A DNA stretch of 44,476 nt from Escherichia phage vB_EcoD_Pubbukkers (NC_073068.1), one strand, 5' to 3'. Counted from the stretch's first letter, positions 5,081 to 40,475 are shown. Notes: a model not told the origin generated them from the sequence alone. Translations and numbers: made by a program.

Positions 5081-5843
5081 AGCGTGGAATACCGCAGATT
5101 TCGTTTAACGTCTTCACATCCAGCGCCACCGCCGTGGACTTAGGCTTGTCCGGGTATGGAATGAACTGTTCCACTTCAGGCCACGCCTTGATCAGCTTCT
5201 TATCGGTATTGTGCATGTTCAGAACGCCGGTAACGGTTAGCTTGAACGCGTCATACTTAGCTCGCAACTCGCGTCGGGCCTTGTCGTTACGGTCCAGGCG
5301 CTTGCAGAAATCATGATCCGCCGGAAAATCAGCGCGGCAGCGTGGCTTATAGATCGGCAGCGCTTTCCCGTCCTCGTCCAATTCGCACACAGAAGCCAGC
5401 ATAACTTCTTCGTACCCAGGCACAATATCGCCGAGATCGGGAGATAGCATATTCATGTATTTATATTCCCAGTATCCGCGATGTATTCGGTATTGTCGTC
5501 CGTCACCGCTCAATGACAGTGTGCGCACATTTCCGCCTGCGTTGATTTCGAAAGTGGCGTCATAAACGCTGCCGATACCGTTCGGGCTGTCGGCGTCATA
5601 TCTATACGTCGCCTTGTTGGTGTATACGCAGACGCCGTACATCTGCGACGGGTCATCGCCGATTGCTTCAATGCGCTCACGTAGCTCGGCGAACGAATGA
5701 ATGCCTTCCGGCATACAGTCAAGCGTAATGGCGTACGCCAGATTTCGAGAGTCCATCATGATTGATTTGGCTTCGGTCGCGATTTCGTGGTCGCGCAGGA
5801 TGTTAGCCAGAATCTGGTTTTTAATGTCTTTCGTCAGTCTCAT
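5079..5843 (-). CDS. hypothetical protein (reverse-strand moron in head module)
   Basis: 255 aa starting MRLTKDIKNQ with RBS GAGGA; the ORF-track N-terminal extension (to 6224) is low-complexity antisense of the scaffold gene and is rejected. No recognisable motif. Confidence 0.6.
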   Translation of the reverse strand: MRLTKDIKNQILANILRDHEIATEAKSIMMDSRNLAYAITLDCMPEGIHSFAELRERIEAIGDDPSQMYGVCVYTNKATYRYDADSPNGIGSVYDATFEINAGGNVRTLSLSGDGRQYRIHRGYWEYKYMNMLSPDLGDIVPGYEEVMLASVCELDEDGKALPIYKPRCRADFPADHDFCKRLDRNDKARRELRAKYDAFKLTVTGVLNMHNTDKKLIKAWPEVEQFIPYPDKPKSTAVALDVKTLNEICGIPR

Positions 5844-5991
5844 TAGTGTGTCCTCGTTGTTGGTGTGCAACCAATATATGCAACCAATACGAGGATCGCA
5901 AGCGAATTTTGCGATTATTTTTATCGCTGATAATATTAGAAGCGTGAAGTCGAGCGGGTGGCCTGCTCTGCCACAATCCCAGGGGGATAGC

Positions 5992-11461: not shown

Positions 11462-11595
11462 TGAAGCGGGACAGGCGGGACGTCCCGTTTTGTCCCGCCT
11501 CTGTAAAACTGCATATCTACTCACTTCCACTGCATAAACTCAAAACGGGACAAGCGGGACGTCCCGCTTAGTCCCGCCCTGTAAATGTGCATACC

Positions 11596-11782
11596 TATGC
11601 AGTTTTATTGCATAAACTAAGCGGGACAAAAAGCGGGACAAACAAGGGGCGGGACAAAGCGGGACAGCACCCCGTCCCCGCCAGTGCTGCCGCGGTTTTC
11701 AGCCGATCGGGACAGCGGGACAGCACCCCAGTCTTTCAGACTAGACGGGGGTCAATGGCCCCCCTCGTCTGAGACTGAATAA
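11596..11782. repeat. copy 1 of a ~188-bp duplicated non-coding element (GCGGGACA iterons plus conserved stem-loop)
   Basis: Near-identical to 40076..40263; contains a TATGCA-gttttat-TGCATA palindrome, four tandem GCGGGACA units, two more after a divergent 26-bp segment, and the hairpin AGACGGGGG-loop-CCCCCCTCGTCT (11743-11770). Confidence 0.85.
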
Positions 11783-21926: not shown

Positions 21927-22005
21927 GGTATCATCCCCTATATTTGGTTGAGTTTTAGTATTACACCGCTCAGCCAGGATTGCAACCAATTACGAGGATT
22001 TAGCT

Positions 22006-23583: not shown

Positions 23584-23608
23584 GGGGCCGTATGGCCCCT
23601 ATTTTTAG
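23584..23608. terminator. bidirectional rho-independent terminator
   Basis: AGGGGCC-gtat-GGCCCCT stem followed by ATTTTT; between the plus fibre gene end (23577) and the minus gene end (23605). Confidence 0.7.
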
Positions 23609-24180
23609 TTTGAGTTTTCCCAGTCCATTTTGCGCCGCACCAGCGGGCTTTCGTAATATTCCTTTCCTTCCACTTCCACCAAAGGCCAGTCGTTCACAAT
23701 CACGTATGGCTCCGCGATATCCTCAATCACGCCGTGCGCGCTTTGCGGCCCTAACGACACACCAACCAGGATAACACCGGCAACGCGACGGGTCAGATAT
23801 TCGCGAGCACAACGCGCCTCTACCAGCCCGCGACGGATGCCGCTGGTGGCTTTAACCTCGTAGGTCCAGACGGCATCGATCACATGCTCGCGGAAGTCGG
23901 GGCCGGACTTTACCTTGCGCTTGCCGACCATGATGATATCGCCGCGGTCAATGGTATTGGCGCTAAACAGGCCGGTACGCATAAGTAAGCCTTGCGGTAT
24001 GCAACTACGCCCGCCCGCCTGCCCTTCAAGGTACATGCCTGCAAACATTTCGCCCAGCACACCGACCAGTCGGCTTTGCTTGCACGCGTCAGACTTTAAG
24101 CGCCACTGATCAAACTCGATGCTTGCTATCATTGCCGCCAGGTGGAATTGTTTACCGGATATTTCATATTCGCCGTACAT
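23605..24180 (-). CDS. hypothetical protein
   Basis: 191-aa ORF at the distal end of the leftward operon; no motif recognised. Confidence 0.55.
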   Translation of the reverse strand: MYGEYEISGKQFHLAAMIASIEFDQWRLKSDACKQSRLVGVLGEMFAGMYLEGQAGGRSCIPQGLLMRTGLFSANTIDRGDIIMVGKRKVKSGPDFREHVIDAVWTYEVKATSGIRRGLVEARCAREYLTRRVAGVILVGVSLGPQSAHGVIEDIAEPYVIVNDWPLVEVEGKEYYESPLVRRKMDWENSN

Positions 24181-24222: not shown

Positions 24223-24777
24223 TTATTTCAGTGCACCAGTCACCAGTGTTTTTTCCATGTTACGGAAATCTTCCTGCGTCATGCAGATTTTCGATCCGTC
24301 TTCGCCGGTGCGCACGACCATAGGCTGGACGTCCTGGGCTACAACTCCAAAATTGGCGGCCCTAACAGTCTTTCCGAACGAGGCCACCGTGTCCTCTGCA
24401 ACGCGAATTGCGTTGTTATACGCATTAATCTCGCCGTCCAGGCGCACGGACAGGCCTTTGAGGCTGTCGAATTGTGCTGCCGTTGTGTCGATCTGAATCT
24501 CGTCATGCACGGTCATGTACGACTCGCCCAGCAATGCGGCATACGCTACCAGGTCCACGATATTATCTTCCTGGTGCTTACGGTGCTGGCGTACCAGCTT
24601 CAGGCAGATCAAGAAGGTCCAGGCTTCTTGCTCGGTCAGGTCGCGACCGGTAAGCGCATTAAACACGGCAGCGATCTGTTTAGCGCTGCGTTCTTCTTTC
24701 GCGTTGTCATAGCCGTTTTCTTTCCCGCGCTGTTCCATAGTGGTGGCGGCGTTTTTGCAGTATTCGTATGCTTTCAT
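24223..24777 (-). CDS. hypothetical protein (all-alpha, possibly MazG-like NTP pyrophosphohydrolase)
   Basis: 184 aa; start ATG at 24777 sits directly downstream of a promoter-like palindromic motif; functional guess is weak. Confidence 0.5.
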   Translation of the reverse strand: MKAYEYCKNAATTMEQRGKENGYDNAKEERSAKQIAAVFNALTGRDLTEQEAWTFLICLKLVRQHRKHQEDNIVDLVAYAALLGESYMTVHDEIQIDTTAAQFDSLKGLSVRLDGEINAYNNAIRVAEDTVASFGKTVRAANFGVVAQDVQPMVVRTGEDGSKICMTQEDFRNMEKTLVTGALK

Positions 24778-24839
24778 TATGTGGTCCTTTTTAGTTGGGG
24801 GCGGTATTGCCCCGACGCGTTAACTATAGTGCAACCAAC

Positions 24840-25310
24840 CTATTGGTTGCAAGTGAATTTCGCAACGTTTATTGCGTAAATATTCGGGACCAAATCGCTA
24901 CACGCCCGACGGATAGCTGCAATGTTCTTCGGGCAGTCTTCAATGATGACCAGTTCCGACACGTCTGCGTAGCAGACCATTTTGAACACGGTGCACGCCT
25001 TAAACTCCGGCGGCGGGGTGTCGTCCAGCATGTGGCGCATAAACAACCGGCCTGCCGGGAATACTTCCAGTTGCTCGGCGGTAGTCTCCCAACATTCGCG
25101 CTGCCGGTTAGTCAGATACGCTATCTCGAAGCCTTGCTCTTTGTACATGCGCAACAGCGGCAGCATATCCATGTTCAGGTCTTCGCGAACGTGCGCTTTG
25201 TGCCACTTCGCCCAAAAGGTGGATTTCGTTTTTATGCCTGGCACCAGGTCGGCGCGGGCATCACTCGAACCATTAATGACGCCATCCAGATCACAAATCA
25301 GTAATTTCAT
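24840..25310 (-). CDS. HAD-superfamily phosphatase (putative)
   Basis: 156 aa from ATG 25310 (MKLLICDLDGVINGS): the DxDGV motif I of haloacid dehalogenase-like hydrolases sits at the N-terminus; the ORF-track extension to 25376 is rejected. Confidence 0.6.
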   Translation of the reverse strand: MKLLICDLDGVINGSSDARADLVPGIKTKSTFWAKWHKAHVREDLNMDMLPLLRMYKEQGFEIAYLTNRQRECWETTAEQLEVFPAGRLFMRHMLDDTPPPEFKACTVFKMVCYADVSELVIIEDCPKNIAAIRRACSDLVPNIYAINVAKFTCNQ

Positions 25311-26691: not shown

Positions 26692-26705
26692 TGTGTCGTC
26701 TCCGG

Positions 26706-26736
26706 GTATTAAAAAGGGCGTCCAAACCGGACACCC
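26706..26736 (-). terminator. rho-independent terminator on minus strand
   Basis: On the minus strand GGGUGUCC-gguuu-GGACGCCC followed by UUUUUAAU; immediately downstream of the motif pair at 26746-26772. Confidence 0.5.
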
Positions 26737-26772
26737 TCAATATAATGCAACCAATACGGTTACGCAACCAAT

Positions 26773-29704: not shown

Positions 29705-29983
29705 CTATGCGACCAATTCAGCAACCAATAAATCGCAGTCGGATATGTTGTCGATAACGCGAACGTCAGCACCGCGGCGGGCCATTCGCTCATGTTCACG
29801 TACCTGGTGCGGCTTCGGTTTTCCTCCGGGGCGCTTCACTTCGACGAACACTATTTTGCCGTTGATGATAATAATCAGGTCGGGCGCACCTGCGCGCCCC
29901 TCCCATGCCAGTTTTCGGCAGAATCCGCCTACCTCTTTCACCCGTCGCATCAGGTGACTTTGAATCTTGCCTTCTGGTGTCAT
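29705..29983 (-). CDS. VRR-NUC domain nuclease
   Basis: 92 aa; PD-(D/E)xK-type core DLIIIINGKIVFVEVKRPGGKPKPHQ typical of VRR-NUC; start overlaps the polymerase stop. Confidence 0.7.
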   Translation of the reverse strand: MTPEGKIQSHLMRRVKEVGGFCRKLAWEGRAGAPDLIIIINGKIVFVEVKRPGGKPKPHQVREHERMARRGADVRVIDNISDCDLLVAELVA

Positions 29984-32900
29984 TACTTCCTGTACCTGTA
30001 CATGATGTCGCCTTCAGCGGCAAGCGGGAAGCCTTTCGCCCAAATAGGCAGGTCGCACATCAGCGCGCAAAGCTCCTCGGTCGTGTAGTCGTCGGTGTCC
30101 GGAACTTCGGTGATCAATTCATCGTGCACTGACAGGACGATTTCATATCCGGCAGCTTCAACGCCAGGCATGGACCACGCGAGGATATCGCGGCACAGCG
30201 CCTGTACGATGTTTTCCGTCAGTTTGCCGCCGTAGGTGTACTGGAACCCCCACTGGCGCGTCGTCTGATTCTCGCCCTGATATTTAATGCGGGTGCTGGT
30301 GCGCTTCTTGCCGGTGTCTTCGTCAATCTCGGTCGTGACCGACAGCGCGATGCCGGGGTAACTCATGATGCGCCCCGACGGCAACTCAATTTTCAACCAC
30401 CACCCCGCGGCGTTCGGGTCGTCGCGCTCCTCGTCAAAGGTTGGGTCGTGCTTCGCCTTCGTACGGACAATCTTGAGCGCTTTTCTACCGTCCGGGCGAA
30501 CGGTAGCGCCAGCCCAGTATGCTTTGCCCGGATTGCGTATTGCACACAACACCGCGTCCTCAAGCTCGGCCCAAAAGGCTACCGTCTTCGGGTGCGCCTC
30601 TCGCCACATGCGTTTAATCGCATCACACGTAAGCCATACGTTTTTCGGCAGTATGTAAGTCGGGCGCTCGTCCTTCTTGCCCGGCTTCGGCGGTCGCTTC
30701 GCTTCGTTAATGCGGGCGTACTCATAACCCCGTTTAGCCGCTGCCCAAATGTGATTGGGGAATGTGCCCTTCATGACGTCCGCCATCGCGTAAAGGTCGA
30801 GGCCCAGGTTTTTAGCGAACTGCAAGAACGCCGCGACGCCGCCACCATAGCCCAGGCCAAGCTCGCAGTTATGCGCCACCAGAAAACCAGACTTAGACGC
30901 AATAAGGAACCGGTTTCCGTCTTCCACATCAATCAGGTCGTAAACCGGCTCGCAATAGGTTAACTTCCCGTTCCAGTTCAGCAATGCGGGTAAGGGCTTC
31001 ATCGTACTTTCGCTGAAGCTCGGGCACGCTGCGCCGGTTACGGCAGTTTTCCGAACGGCTGACAAACCGAAGGTTTCCAGGCTCATAGTTGCTGTCTGTA
31101 TCGATCCGGTCCATTTCGAAGTCTGGATTATCCCAGCCGTCCAGCGTTTGAACGTAGAGAAGAAACGACCTTTTATCTCTCTGCCATTCGTCACATACGG
31201 CAATCCCACGACCGCCGTAGTTTTTATACCCTTTGGCGCGGGGGTTTGTCGTTCGTGATATTGCCGCTGACAGCCGGTTGAGCAACCGCGTTCTGTGCGC
31301 ATCGTCTGGCATTGCGTCATCGTAGCAAAAATACTGTTTACGATACCGCTTTGTCGCTTCAATTGCGCAGAGGTTGCATTGGGATGTTTTACCCCTTCGG
31401 ACGTTGTCATACCCGACGCGTCCTGGCATCGCTCCGCAATCACATTGGGCCAGCAGTTGTCTGTGCCCCTGTCGTTTTGGTAATTCGCGCAGGATAACCA
31501 GGCGTCCATACCTCTCGCCAGGGCGCGGGCCATCGTGCACCTGTCTGAAACGAGTTGCCTTGCCTCCTTCCATGAATGCGTCAAGATTTTGTGGTCTTCT
31601 GTCATCAAGACCCCGTCCACGTCTATCACTGGTTTCCACCCCATAAGGTGCGCGCCTTTTGTACTCACCCATTTTTCGCCGTTCCATACTTTATCCGTTG
31701 ATGTTACGGCCATAATATCCTTGAACCCGCCATCGGTCAATACTTGGGTATGGCGGTGCAAGCAAGCCTTCCCTATCTGGCGTAAGTCCTTGCGGTTAGC
31801 TTTAATGTAGTCCGGGTCCAGGCCGAACATCTTACCGGCAGTCTCACAATAGATATCACGACCGGCCTTAAACACCATTAGCGCGGTTTTCTCGCCAGCG
31901 ATCCAGGCAAGTCCACGCCCTTCCACGTTGGAGTAGTCCGCTACGACAAACTTCTTGCCCTTAGCCGGGATAATGCACCCGCGAACGGTCGAGGCTGTTA
32001 GCTTCGATATGTCGTACGCCCAGTGTGCGGTCCCGCGTAGCAGGGAATTGATGCCGTTGGTGAGCATGTGCGACCGGACCCAAAAAGCAACGTCGCTCTC
32101 GCCTTCGCGGCGCTTAATCTTCCCTTCGTGATCGTCGCTATACTCGCCGCGTGCCAGGTTTTGAGGCTGGAAGCCTTTACCGGCCCAGCGTAGCGTGCGC
32201 TTTGCCCCTCCATACTGAAGACAACCTCGGCGGCGACCGTCGGCGGATAGGCCATTAACGAGCGGATTGTACTTAGTCGACGCCGTGGATGACGCACCGA
32301 GGCGCATCTCGATAAGCACTTTGCCCTCGTCGGGGAAGTCTGGATCTTCCAGCAGGTCGTTAAGCGTGGATTTCTGCGCATTGTGGATTGTGAACGCAGG
32401 CGCGAGGTCGCGCAGCGCTGGCAGGAAGTCATTGCCGGTCAGCTTACCGCCGAAGCGCTCCCAGGCTTCTTCCTTCAATTCTTCCTTATGCGCCTGCACC
32501 GCTTTGATCGCGGCGTTCGCCAGGTCAACGTCCACATAGAAGCCGCGGTCATTGATCAACTGGTCGATAAGCAGGATTTCATCTTCCTTCGGGGTATTAC
32601 CCCAGTCCGGTATGCGCCAGTAGACCTCCCGCATCGCGATAATATCCAGCGCGGCATATCGCAGAAATTTGGCCCATTCTTCAGGGTGAGTCTCGCGAGT
32701 GTAGCGGCGGATTTTGTAAGTCTTAGGGGTAGGCTTGCAGAATCGTTTAATCAGCGCCTTGCCTGCCTTATCCTTCGCGTGCTCTGCGTCAACGCCCAGC
32801 ACCTGACACTGCATATCGAGGCTGCCCGGCAGCGCGTGCCGAAAGGCCATAATCATGGTATCTTCGATCTGGCTTACCGGCAGGTCGATTCCCCACTTTT

Positions 32901-33171
32901 CACGGATAACCAGGCGGTCAAACAGGAGGCCGTTAGCCATCACGATTTTTGCTTTCTTGCGGGATACCTGACGGAGCGCCTTGCGCAGTTCACGCGGCAT
33001 TGTTGGTGATTCAGTGGCATCCCATGTCTGCACGCGGCCTTCGTCGATGGCGTAGGTGCAAATCATGATCTCGGTGGTTGGGTGCTCTGCGTAGGCGTAC
33101 GCCCCTACTTTCTTCAGGTCCACCCCGCTAAATGTCTCGGTATCGAGAAACAGGCGTTCAAAGTTTTTCAT
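29983..33171 (-). CDS. DNA polymerase I family (3'-5' exonuclease plus polymerase) interrupted by an intein
   Basis: 1062 aa; Exo I FLDTETFS; motif A VADYSNVEGRGLAW; motif B split as RQIGKA | intein | CELGLGYGGG; motif C VLSVHDELITEV. Intein residues 470-768 carry block A (CLHRHTQVLTDGG), block B (ILTHSW), block F (VYDLIDVEDGNRFLIA) and block G (FLVAHN followed by +1 Cys). Confidence 0.85.
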   Translation of the reverse strand: MKNFERLFLDTETFSGVDLKKVGAYAYAEHPTTEIMICTYAIDEGRVQTWDATESPTMPRELRKALRQVSRKKAKIVMANGLLFDRLVIREKWGIDLPVSQIEDTMIMAFRHALPGSLDMQCQVLGVDAEHAKDKAGKALIKRFCKPTPKTYKIRRYTRETHPEEWAKFLRYAALDIIAMREVYWRIPDWGNTPKEDEILLIDQLINDRGFYVDVDLANAAIKAVQAHKEELKEEAWERFGGKLTGNDFLPALRDLAPAFTIHNAQKSTLNDLLEDPDFPDEGKVLIEMRLGASSTASTKYNPLVNGLSADGRRRGCLQYGGAKRTLRWAGKGFQPQNLARGEYSDDHEGKIKRREGESDVAFWVRSHMLTNGINSLLRGTAHWAYDISKLTASTVRGCIIPAKGKKFVVADYSNVEGRGLAWIAGEKTALMVFKAGRDIYCETAGKMFGLDPDYIKANRKDLRQIGKACLHRHTQVLTDGGFKDIMAVTSTDKVWNGEKWVSTKGAHLMGWKPVIDVDGVLMTEDHKILTHSWKEARQLVSDRCTMARALARGMDAWLSCANYQNDRGTDNCWPNVIAERCQDASGMTTSEGVKHPNATSAQLKRQSGIVNSIFATMTQCQTMRTERGCSTGCQRQYHERQTPAPKGIKTTAVVGLPYVTNGREIKGRFFSTFKRWTAGIIQTSKWTGSIQTATMSLETFGLSAVRKTAVTGAACPSFSESTMKPLPALLNWNGKLTYCEPVYDLIDVEDGNRFLIASKSGFLVAHNCELGLGYGGGVAAFLQFAKNLGLDLYAMADVMKGTFPNHIWAAAKRGYEYARINEAKRPPKPGKKDERPTYILPKNVWLTCDAIKRMWREAHPKTVAFWAELEDAVLCAIRNPGKAYWAGATVRPDGRKALKIVRTKAKHDPTFDEERDDPNAAGWWLKIELPSGRIMSYPGIALSVTTEIDEDTGKKRTSTRIKYQGENQTTRQWGFQYTYGGKLTENIVQALCRDILAWSMPGVEAAGYEIVLSVHDELITEVPDTDDYTTEELCALMCDLPIWAKGFPLAAEGDIMYRYRK
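30868..31764 (-). mobile_element. intein inserted in DNA polymerase motif B
   Basis: 299 codons between extein residues ...RQIGKA and CELGLGYG...; starts with Cys, ends with His-Asn followed by Cys; canonical Hint blocks at both ends; the central ~180 codons show no endonuclease motifs in the polymerase frame. Confidence 0.8.
30929..31687 (-). CDS. HNH homing endonuclease encoded in the -1 frame inside the polymerase intein
   Basis: 252-aa ORF offset by one nucleotide from the polymerase frame; contains GRLVILREL...CDCG...SQCNLC, KGYKNYGGRGIAVCDEW and DRIDTDSNYEPGNLRFVSRSENCRNR (HNH core). Likely true start at Met39 (31573); no strong RBS seen. Confidence 0.6.
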   Translation of the reverse strand: MERRKMGEYKRRAPYGVETSDRRGRGLDDRRPQNLDAFMEGGKATRFRQVHDGPRPGERYGRLVILRELPKRQGHRQLLAQCDCGAMPGRVGYDNVRRGKTSQCNLCAIEATKRYRKQYFCYDDAMPDDAHRTRLLNRLSAAISRTTNPRAKGYKNYGGRGIAVCDEWQRDKRSFLLYVQTLDGWDNPDFEMDRIDTDSNYEPGNLRFVSRSENCRNRRSVPELQRKYDEALTRIAELEREVNLLRAGLRPD

Positions 33172-34173: not shown

Positions 34174-34263
34174 TTTCCAATTCCTCATTTTCACATGTAT
34201 CGGGGTTATTGGAAGCCACCCCGTTCGGCTTGGTTGCTAATCTACTTGGTTGCGCCTTAGCGG

Positions 34264-37129: not shown

Positions 37130-37159
37130 ATAATAGATTGGTTGCAGGATGGGTGTCAA
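37130..37159 (-). promoter_or_regulatory. sigma70-like promoter for the acidic-protein gene
   Basis: On the minus strand: -35 TTGACA (37159-37154), 18-bp spacer containing TGCAACCAAT, -10 TATTAT (37135-37130); a 7-bp inverted repeat CATCCTG/CAGGATG (37111-37117 and 37146-37152) brackets the -10. Confidence 0.5.
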
Positions 37160-37170
37160 CAACTAATTTC

Positions 37171-37206
37171 AAAAAAAAAAGCGCCGAGGCAAAATGCGAC
37201 GGCGCT
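37171..37206 (-). terminator. strong rho-independent terminator on minus strand (A10 on plus = U10 on transcript)
   Basis: On the minus strand AGCGCCG-13 nt loop-CGGCGCU followed by ten U; stem at plus 37180-37206. Confidence 0.65.
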
Positions 37207-37234
37207 AACCAATAAGAGACAATGAGACGGGAGT

Positions 37235-37263
37235 ATTATTACACGCGTGCGCGCCCGTTTCAA
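37235..37263 (-). promoter_or_regulatory. sigma70-like promoter on minus strand upstream of the U10 terminator
   Basis: -35 TTGAAA (37263-37258), 17-bp spacer, -10 AATAAT (37240-37235) on the minus strand; would give a ~55-60 nt transcript ending at 37171. Confidence 0.4.
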
Positions 37264-37335
37264 TATCCAAAGGATTTGACACCTTGCGGTTTTAGGTGTA
37301 GTTTCGTTGATCATTAACCAACTGAGGGCAGAGCA

Positions 37336-37665
37336 ATGAATGTAAACGACGCAATCGAAATGTTAACGAAGACTGTTTGCAGTGAGACTAGCCGGTCCTG
37401 GGCTTATACCGATGCCGTTGGGGAGGTGTTATTTGAAATCGAACGACTGCGCAGTGTCGAAAAAGAATTACGCGCCAGGCTGGAATTGCTCAACGGTACG
37501 GCGGCCAGCAAGCTGCAAAAGCACAATGAAGAAATGGAAGAATACAAAAAGCAGGTTATCCGTTTGCGCGCCGAGGGCAAATCCTGGGCGATGATTGCCG
37601 AGTTGACCGGAATTAATCAGAGCACAGTGCGCTCCTGGGTACGCAATAATAAAACTTCTAAGTAA
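37336..37665 (+). CDS. HTH DNA-binding protein (putative transcriptional regulator)
   Basis: 109 aa; C-terminal helix-turn-helix-like GKSWAMIAELTGINQSTVRSWVR; first gene of the rightward arm; perfect -35 TTGACA at 37276-37281 upstream. Confidence 0.55.
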   Translation: MNVNDAIEMLTKTVCSETSRSWAYTDAVGEVLFEIERLRSVEKELRARLELLNGTAASKLQKHNEEMEEYKKQVIRLRAEGKSWAMIAELTGINQSTVRSWVRNNKTSK

Positions 37666-39940: not shown

Positions 39941-40015
39941 ATTTTGCGCGCATTGGTCGCCGTTATGGGAATCCCCATATCGGTAAAAGATTAAATTTTG
40001 CGCGCATTGGTTGCC
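39930..40015. repeat. pair of 32-bp direct repeats (31/32 identical) overlapping the primase stop
   Basis: taaaagattaaattttgcgcgcattggtYgcc at 39930-39961 and 39984-40015, 54-bp period; each ends in an ATTGGTYGCC motif. Confidence 0.8.
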
Positions 40016-40075
40016 ATTTTGCGTGCTTTTAGCTGGTCGTATTGGTTGCCGTGTAGTGTAAATATAATGAATAGT

Positions 40076-40263
40076 TATGCAGTTTTATTGCATAAAGTAA
40101 GCGGGACAAAAAGCGGGACAGACCAGGGGCGGGACAAAGCGGGACAGCACCCCTGTCCCGCCCCGGATGACGCGGCCTGGCGAGGAGCGGGACAGCGGGA
40201 CAGCACCCCAGTCTTTCAGACTAGACGGGGGGTCTGGCACCCCCCTCGTCTGAGACTGAATAA
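40076..40263. repeat. copy 2 of the ~188-bp duplicated element (GCGGGACA iterons plus conserved stem-loop)
   Basis: Aligns with 11596-11782: same TATGCA...TGCATA palindrome, four plus two GCGGGACA units and the same stem (loop sequence differs). Confidence 0.85.
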
Positions 40264-40475
40264 AATCCGGGATTGCATAACGCACGGCAACAAGATGCGG
40301 AGTGCGGTCGTCGATGAACTAGGCAACCAACGCGAGATGCATTATGCTGAGTGAAAAATTCAGTTTGCAGTTGCAGCAGATAGCGATCAACTTTTTCATG
40401 CGCGTGATTGATATTGGTTGCATTCGTCCTGCCAGGGTGTTAGATTGGTTGCATATCAAACGAAGGAGGGCATTC

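Follow-up and report, generated by a model that had tools for sequence, protein, structure and literature searches.

A perfect 22-bp palindrome at positions 24830-24851 of Escherichia phage vB_EcoD_Pubbukkers (NC_073068.1) is built from two copies of a short asymmetric box that recurs at about ten promoters in this phage and in its wider relatives. The 44,476-nucleotide (nt) stretch that was analysed, referred to here as the window, is all or nearly all of the genome of a Dhillonvirus, an HK578-like virulent siphophage of Escherichia coli, and the palindrome is an ordinary element within a probable phage regulon that is defined by a short repeated operator. We read the boxes as operators for a sequence-specific phage protein, where each box would be one recognition unit, the helix-turn-helix (HTH) protein hyp50 would be the likeliest binder and repression would be the likelier outcome; we assign this reading a probability of roughly 0.6. 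The gene order of the window is collinear with that of Escherichia phage Oekolampad (Bas18), whose annotation was carried over to the window genes by tblastn.

Alignment of all copies defined the box as t-GCAACCAA-T, an asymmetric motif of 9-10 bp with eight essentially invariant positions. The 9-mer TGCAACCAA occurs nine times in the window against 0.53 expected copies, a count reached by none of 100 shuffles, and the 8-mer core GCAACCAA occurs 18 times against approximately 1.3 expected. The arms of the palindrome therefore do consist of a recurrent motif, as the initial annotation had proposed. Fourteen of the 18 core copies lie within the non-coding 6.2% of the window (hypergeometric P = 3e-14), and of the four 'coding' copies, two coincide with the final codons of the phosphatase and VRR-NUC genes, inside the promoter of the next gene. 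When all 7-mers were tested for intergenic enrichment, words from the box took ranks 1-3 (P = 1e-15 to 1e-10, with 1.4e-15 for the top word); the remaining abundant 8-mers of the window belong to coding sequence and show no bias towards intergenic regions. Altogether, 17 promoter-region boxes fall into about ten clusters across the window. No prior description of the box was found in the searchable literature on the motif and on Dhillonvirus/HK578 transcription.

The palindrome reads TGCAACCAA-CCTA-TTGGTTGCA, and the sequence bears out the reported perfect 9+9 inverted repeat with a 4-nt spacer. Perfect 9-bp inverted repeats are not rare in themselves, with seven in the window at spacers of 0-10 against approximately 2.2 in Markov-1 random sequences (maximum 6), and it is the sequence of the arms that is non-random. 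A consensus scan returned a sigma70-like promoter on the minus strand, TTGCAA (24852-24847)-18-TATAGT (24828-24823), which is directed at hyp29 and is called P(hyp29) here. This is the promoter that had been predicted for the gene at 24223-24777, but the palindrome, which had been placed just upstream of it, overlaps it: the distal box and the T that precedes it form the -35 hexamer TTGCAA (24847-24852), and the proximal box lies between the two hexamers. The base that separates the -10 hexamer from this box is variable among close relatives. The proposed overlap with the end of a HAD-like gene also holds, as the transcribed minus strand reads TGC AAC CAA TAG across the palindrome, which corresponds to Cys-Asn-Gln-stop of the phosphatase and puts the stop codon in the palindrome spacer. 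A stem-loop in the 5' untranslated region (5'-UTR) of the predicted transcript is followed by no U-tract and varies among relatives both in length and by paired substitutions (GGGGC/GCCCC, GGGGGC/GCCCCC and GGGAGGC/GCCTCCC). These changes fit a 5'-terminal mRNA hairpin and support the P(hyp29) promoter call.

A sigma70-like promoter aimed at the downstream gene accompanies every box cluster of the window (Table 1). P(hyp48), P(SSB), P(hyp29) and P(hyp7) are promoter-like sites returned by the scan, and P(hyp34), P(hyp39) and P(hyp53) were recognised by inspection of alignments. The boxes occur in both orientations over the -35 element, in the spacer beside the -10 element or on or after the -10 element, at approximately -39 to -31, -35 to -27, -22 to -14 and -8 to +1. 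They are mostly paired, 12-35 bp apart, and all clusters other than the palindrome are single boxes or direct pairs (start-to-start distances of 12, 13, 16, 17, 31 and 35 bp), so the palindrome is indeed the only site in the window where two copies of the box face each other. The two promoters with near-consensus, TTGAC-type -35 elements have a 'forward' box in the spacer; these are P(hyp48), TTGACA-18-TATTAT at 37159-37130, and P(SSB), TTGACC-17-TAGATT, where a second box directly follows the -10 element. At the promoters with a TTGCxx -35 element (P(hyp34), P(hyp39), P(hyp53), P(hyp7) and those of distant relatives), the TTGC is supplied by a 'reverse' box. In P(hyp7), TTGCGA-17-TATATT, the first box abuts the -10 element, which consists of TATA plus the first TT of the second box. 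Similarly, the last two boxes of P(hyp53), TTGGTTGCA-N22-TTGGTTGCA on the plus strand, frame TTGCAT-17-TAGATT, and its -10 element comprises the last four spacer bases and the first TT of the second box. On the minus strand, the box at 21981-21989 supplies the -35 element of a divergent small-gene promoter, TTGCAA-16-TAATAC.

The boxes are strongly conserved. A 3.7-kb stretch around the palindrome is matched by 157 phage records at 80-95% identity, and across 9-16 distinct relatives per region identity to the window reaches 99.0% at the box core columns, of which 86% are invariant, compared with 86.8% and 58% for other intergenic columns and 94.5% identity for -10 hexamers. Spacers between paired boxes are free in sequence and kept in length (8 nt at P(hyp34) and 22 nt at P(hyp53)). 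At the palindrome junction, 16 of 19 close relatives have the inverted pair, a number that includes the window and Oekolampad. Phages slur05, McMelon and Bas84 have a direct pair there, TGCAACCAA-taa-TGCAACCAA-c/t-TATATT or TACATT, and this slur05-type allele is matched by at least eight GenBank records at 99% identity or more and by four more at 90-95%. Four distant metagenomic relatives, with phosphatases 44-53% identical to that of the window, carry a direct pair of the opposite sense, TTGGTTGCA-N4/N8-TTGGTTGCA/G, with TATATT, TATAGT or TATCTT 1 to 6 nt further on. The box pair, the -10 element and the 5' hairpin therefore persist at this junction in relatives with only 44-53% phosphatase identity. 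By these sequence comparisons, the box pair, its register to the -10 element and the hairpin are old and conserved, and the relative orientation of the boxes is free. The conserved unit is a single box, or two boxes over a core promoter, and not dyad symmetry, and the palindrome owes its mirror symmetry to chance in this lineage. We observed directly the motif and its excess, its placement at promoters, its conservation and the lack of a conserved dyad. A scan of IMG/VR with the palindrome returned 13 Dhillonvirus contigs and one unrelated jumbo-phage terminator, which was taken as chance. The corresponding direct-pair scan returned, besides Dhillonvirus contigs, chance matches or coding tandem repeats, and revealed no other phage group with dispersed boxes.

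Two further variants were seen at this junction. In two of the 16 sequences with the inverted pair, L009 and L015 (IMG/VR 2706796374 and 2706796375), the palindrome spacer, homologous to 24839-24842 of the window, is flipped (CCTA for TAGG on the transcribed strand) and both arms are unchanged; the flip, which looks like a palindrome-mediated inversion, abolishes the stop codon and makes the phosphatase longer by at least eight residues. In Escherichia phage McMelon (L297), an extra 111-aa gene (491-880) lies between the box-pair promoter and the DUF6378 gene, with copies of the 5' stem-loop (GGGAGGC...GCCTCCC) on both of its flanks, as if the hairpin had been an insertion or recombination joint.

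The candidate binder hyp50 is the only protein with an HTH match above Pfam thresholds among the 33 window proteins scanned, most of which are hypothetical. It matches HTH_23 (30.8 bits, cutoff 24.6), HTH_28 (28.4 bits, above the cut-off) and, with residues 65-103, Sigma70_r4_2 (27.7 bits, cutoff 25.7). There is no match to sigma-70 region 2 and the remainder of the protein is one long helix, so hyp50 does not qualify as a member of the sigma-70 family. An AlphaFold2 model (predicted local distance difference test score of 84) features a short N-terminal helix, a 55-residue helix (residues 25-79) and a terminal HTH. A Foldseek search of this model against the PDB matched the HTH only, to LuxR/GerE, resolvase and IstA domains (E about 1; root mean square deviation of 0.4-1.5 Å over 34-46 residues), and found no match for the whole protein. 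The last 60 residues barely vary among 17 homologues and the first 45 are highly variable or replaced, and in a lineage whose other proteins are 27-80% identical, the C-terminal domain of hyp50 is 82% identical. A profile search of 1.84 billion representative proteins confined full-length relatives to this phage group, with all others matching the HTH alone; database names for the family are transposase, resolvase or 'Gam'. This pattern of conservation fits, if circumstantially, a protein that is locked to many dispersed sites. The hyp50 promoter, TTGACA-17-TAGTTT (37277-37305), has no canonical box. On these grounds, we give the early HTH protein hyp50 an even chance of being the protein that binds the boxes.

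Protein binding, the identity of the binder and repression are what we infer from these data. An operator for a phage HTH protein, as suggested in the initial annotation, seems the most reasonable function of the palindrome. At P(hyp29), two occupied boxes would occlude the -35 element and the spacer, compete with RNA polymerase and lower promoter output, and bound boxes at 24830-24851 could also impede read-through from the phosphatase operon. As an early protein whose own promoter is free of canonical boxes, hyp50 would act on about ten dispersed promoters, in a manner that is Cro-like in its logic. A negative sign of regulation is slightly favoured, because the boxes are located within spacers or on and beyond -10 elements and are free in orientation.

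Several points weigh against this reading. Most box promoters have a weak TTGCxx -35 element that is supplied by the box, which would suit an activator too, and repression of all replication-gene promoters by the product of the earliest gene is just one conceivable logic. No covariation links hyp50 orthologues to the box in two divergent lineages. The CHD5UKE2 gp38 orthologue is 47% identical to hyp50 and its genome keeps GCAACCAA; the orthologue in the distant relative L301 (P0025) is 45% identical in the C-terminal domain, with a recognition helix of STIKNWIYRK against STVRSWVRNN, and GCAACCAA is still the top intergenic word of that genome. Outside candidates as binders are hyp39, a 57-aa CxxC protein, and hyp65, a 380-aa metallophosphatase-like protein with a weak N-terminal HTH. 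Published binding, footprinting or transcript data on the box were not found in the literature.

The freedom of orientation between lineages removes the main argument for a dimeric, dyad-symmetric operator special to P(hyp29), which is how the initial annotation had interpreted the palindrome and which we now consider improbable. Such an operator would account for the perfect inverted repeat, its 4-nt spacer and its presence in most close relatives, and the long helix of the hyp50 model could mediate dimerisation. However, the pairs at the same junction are direct in slur05, McMelon, Bas84 and the four distant relatives, all other clusters in the window are single or direct with variable spacing and no dyad, and the 4-nt spacer is flipped in two relatives. 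That the palindrome works as a hairpin in RNA or DNA, whether to terminate transcription, to stabilise the 3' end of the phosphatase mRNA or to form a cruciform, is very improbable, because no such hairpin can fold in lineages with the direct repeat. In its favour, the predicted RNA stem-loop has an energy of -11.7 kcal/mol (z = -3.5), and the spacer flip in L009 and L015 suggests that the palindrome may now and then undergo processing as a hairpin. Against this, there is no U-tract after it on either strand, a terminator scan does not list it, and its arms show no compensatory change and are simply the invariant box. The other clusters form no hairpin, and the boxes point either way relative to transcription, a mixture that speaks against a role at the RNA level; an Rfam scan of the whole window matched zero families.

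Activation is a more substantial alternative, although still an unlikely one. A phage factor, such as a sigma-region-4-like HTH protein, would recruit or re-target the host RNA polymerase to 'middle' promoters with weak -35 elements, and could simultaneously act as a repressor of the two TTGAC-type promoters with a box in the spacer. Such a box would be a counterpart of the MotA boxes of T4 or the CII sites of lambda. This would agree with the TTGCxx, rather than TTGACA, found at most box promoters, where the TTGC comes from the 'reverse' box, with the other-orientation box in the spacers of the TTGACA and TTGACC promoters, with the Sigma70_r4_2 match of hyp50 above the cut-off and with the absence of a canonical box from the hyp50 promoter. 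However, the position and orientation of the box relative to the -10 element are not fixed, the orientation flips at one promoter between lineages, and the boxes over or directly after the -10 elements of P(SSB), P(hyp7) and P(hyp53) are hard to reconcile with activation; in addition, Pfam scans of the small proteins found no MotA or AsiA match at E <= 0.1. It is quite unlikely, too, that hyp50 is an orientation-blind switch that assists or replaces sigma region 4 at the TTGC promoters, so activating middle genes, and represses the two TTGAC-type early promoters. If this were true, a virulent siphophage that encodes neither an RNA polymerase nor a sigma factor would run its early-to-middle switch by means of one 109-aa protein and a 9-bp box. 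That the phage exploits the site of a host (E. coli) transcription factor is clearly improbable. The box is kept where the candidate phage HTH protein has diverged strongly, and the phage binder is so far a candidate, and the ACCAAT half of the box resembles the half-site of what we take to be the E. coli PdhR box, ATTGGT-N3-ACCAAT. However, the PdhR dyad TGGT-N3-ACCA occurs at no cluster, and the half-sites of the palindrome have the opposite order (ACCAA-N4-TTGGT). We know of no E. coli factor whose consensus matches the eight invariant bases of the box. A scan of 185,579 bacterial genomes for the inverted pair found at least 120 stretches; among the approximately 80 matches listed, the taxa are unrelated and none is enterobacterial, as for chance. 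A DNA-level signal outside transcription, for instance one that serves replication, packaging or recombination or is cut by a homing endonuclease, is highly improbable: the repeat is dispersed and genes for an HNH endonuclease and for recombination lie nearby, but the boxes are confined to promoter cores with their register to the -10 element preserved across lineages, and the separate GCGGGACA arrays described below are better candidates for an origin or a pac-type site.

A number of more specific readings were also rejected. For IHF, sigma54 and PdhR sites, the consensus or the arrangement does not fit. An N4-type hairpin promoter was dismissed given the absence of a virion RNA polymerase gene among the annotated genes, an intrinsic terminator given the absence of a T-run after the hairpin, and an RNA element given the mixed orientation of the boxes.

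Table 1. Coordinates of the palindrome, the box clusters and associated genes in the window
Feature	Position	Strand	Description
hyp28	23605-24180		Next gene after hyp29
hyp29	24223..24777	-	DUF6378 domain protein; gene 3' of the palindrome promoter
5'-UTR stem-loop	24798..24813	-	GGGGC-N6-GCCCC, just 3' of the predicted start
-10 hexamer of P(hyp29)	24823..24828	-	TATAGT; TATAGT or TATATT in close relatives
Proximal box	24830..24838	+	TTGGTTGCA read on the minus strand; occupies the promoter spacer, stops 1 nt short of the -10 hexamer
Stop codon of the HAD-like phosphatase gene	24840..24842	-	TAG, within the 4-nt spacer of the palindrome
Distal box	24843..24851	-	TGCAACCAA read on the minus strand; encodes the last three phosphatase residues, Cys-Asn-Gln
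P(hyp29), read with transcription			t-TGCAACCAA-tagg-TTGGTTGCA-c-TATAGT
HAD-like phosphatase gene	24843-25310	-	Stop codon at 24840-24842
P(hyp7) box pair	5866..5887	+	Minus strand TTGCGA-N8-TTGGTTGCA-TATA-TTGGTTGCA; divergent hyp7 (Nmad5)/scaffold region
Degenerate partner box of the tail-fibre region	21944-21951		TTGGTTGA
Box upstream of the tail-fibre gene	21981..21989	+	16 nt 5' of the tail-fibre ATG
P(hyp34) box pair	26746..26771	+	Minus strand TTGGTTGCG-N8-TTGGTTGCA-t-TATATT
P(hyp39) box pair	29708..29728	+	Minus strand TTGGTTGCT-gaa-TTGGTCGCA-N6-TATAGT; inside the hyp40 (VRR-NUC) gene, at its 3' end
P(SSB) box pair	34230..34254	-	TTGACC-N7-CGCAACCAA-g-TAGATT-AGCAACCAA; TTGACC-17-TAGATT
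P(hyp48) single box	37138..37146	-	TTGACA-N7-TGCAACCAA-tc-TATTAT
hyp50	37336..37665	+	Candidate binder, 109 aa; first gene of the rightward arm
Three boxes 5' of the hyp52 element	39953..40050	-	TTGGTCGCC, TTGGTTGCC and TTGGTTGCC on the plus strand
Three boxes 5' of hyp53	40322..40453	.	40322+, 40414-, 40445-

The plus-strand genes from 77 to 23577 encode packaging, head and tail functions. The minus-strand genes, from 37113 down to 23605, encode a nuclease, SSB, PolA, a SNF2 helicase, Dcm, an HNH protein, Dam, the phosphatase and the DUF6378 protein, and from 37336 the plus strand again carries the genes for the HTH protein, a primase/helicase-like AAA_25 protein, small proteins and lysis. 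The BASEL paper (PMC8594841) terms this phage group virulent, and no integrase or repressor module is present in the annotated relatives. The searchable literature yielded no description of the Dhillonvirus transcription programme. Two genes of the window have unusual features. The Nmad5 (nucleotide modification associated domain 5) gene at 5082-5843 on the minus strand (Pfam E = 1.8e-56), whose promoter contains the 5866/5879 box pair, is oddly placed within the head-gene block. The PolA gene (29983-33171, minus strand) contains an in-frame insertion of 299 aa at 30868-31764 that is missing from the Oekolampad PolA; it begins with Cys (CLHRH...) and ends with ...VAHN followed by Cys, which are intein hallmarks, and it has no Pfam domain at E <= 0.001.

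Additional elements were observed near the box clusters. At P(hyp34), a stem-loop, GGGTGTCC-N5-GGACGCCC, followed by T5 lies right after the -10 element (26700-26745, minus strand), with the predicted start inside its 5' arm, and may terminate upstream transcripts while transcripts started at P(hyp34) escape. Partial dyads of the TTGGT-N5-ACCAA type occur near box clusters at 37305-37321 and 5860-5874. TTGGTGTGCAACCAA is the partial dyad of the hyp7/scaffold region, and GTTGGTCATTAACCAAC is found in most relatives at approximately +5 to +21 of the HTH gene transcript, with one arm mutated in the window; these partial dyads could be weak autoregulatory sites. The region at 37160-37263 on the minus strand contains a very conserved promoter, TTGAAA-17-TGTAATAAT (37263-37235), followed approximately 60 nt later by a hairpin, GCGCCG...CGGCGC, plus T10. 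This promoter diverges back-to-back from the HTH gene promoter, just 5' of P(hyp48). The element is a candidate small RNA or attenuated leader with no match in Rfam, and hyp49, a 35-aa open reading frame annotated in relatives that overlaps it, is perhaps not a gene.

Two copies of an element of approximately 190 bp, at 11466-11780 and 40067-40255, are annotated in relatives as the paralogous small proteins hyp18 and hyp52. Each element contains six or seven copies of GCGGGACA, a word that occurs 17 times in the window against approximately 1.9 expected, and ends in a long hairpin whose stem is kept and whose loop is variable. The elements look like iteron-type arrays or structured RNA (perhaps an origin or pac site) rather than genes. 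The 40-kb copy lies directly 3' of the TTGGTTGCC boxes, and a 54-bp tandem duplication at 39941-39994, present in about half of the relatives, supplies the third box, TTGGTCGCC, 5' of it. In the L301 genome (Logan SRR33991138 contig), a second word besides GCAACCAA, TGGCACCCC/GGGGTGCCA, occurs six times, always in intergenic sequence, and is similar to the loop and stem sequences of the long window hairpin at 40213-40250.

Few E. coli siphophages are commoner in collections than Dhillonviruses, which have more than 150 genomes in GenBank and several in the BASEL set. One conserved box that marks about ten promoters would offer a ready map of their transcription units, and the protein encoded at 37336-37665 and GCAACCAA would be a regulator-operator pair that can be tested. 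The box would also be a compact, portable control element for engineering these phages. For the reading of sequences in general, the finding cautions that a perfect palindrome of a repeated motif need not mean a dimeric operator.

The proposed regulon shares features with several known phage systems, of which the P1 C1 operators and the L5 stoperators come nearest to it in their logic. Like the boxes of T4 MotA and the TTGC-N6-TTGC sites of lambda CII, which are a phage-specific 9-bp box or TTGC repeats at the -35 position combined with a sigma70-type -10 element, the Dhillonvirus boxes contribute to the -35 region; in contrast to those positively acting boxes, which are fixed in position and orientation, they also lie over or after the -10 element. 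The MotA arrangement of a box at approximately -30 in one orientation is not what these promoters display, and no MotA/AsiA-like factor was found in the Pfam scans of the small proteins. The 'stoperators' of gp71 from mycobacteriophage L5 are comparable in number and setting, being approximately 20-30 asymmetric 13-bp sites in short intergenic gaps between co-directional genes where the bound protein blocks transcription. However, stoperators have a fixed orientation and act on elongation in a temperate phage, whereas the Dhillonvirus boxes are mixed in orientation and lie on the -35 element, the spacer and the -10 element. In lambda, too, the first gene of a rightward arm codes for an early HTH protein, Cro, and hyp50 would similarly turn down early promoters through their core elements. 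The lambda OR and OL operators are dyad-symmetric 17-mers at two loci, whereas the boxes are asymmetric and occur at about ten promoters; of the features of Cro/CI/LacI-type operators, they show the overlap with the core promoter and lack the conserved inverted symmetry. By profile and fold, the C-terminal 40 residues of hyp50 resemble the HTH of LuxR/GerE, resolvase, IstA-type and sigma-70 region 4 domains, but its long helix and N-terminus have no counterpart.

The C1 repressor of phage P1 acts on short asymmetric operators at many genome sites, which overlap promoters, occur singly or in pairs that can form an incomplete palindrome, and place many operons under one protein. The P1 operators are 17 bp long and belong to a lysogeny/immunity circuit, whereas the Dhillonvirus box measures 9-10 bp and is found in a virulent group, and hyp50, with its coiled-coil and LuxR/sigma4-like HTH, has no detected relation to C1. 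Like the P1 operators, the boxes are dispersed, asymmetric, multi-copy sites at promoters, and they are under purifying selection relative to their flanks.

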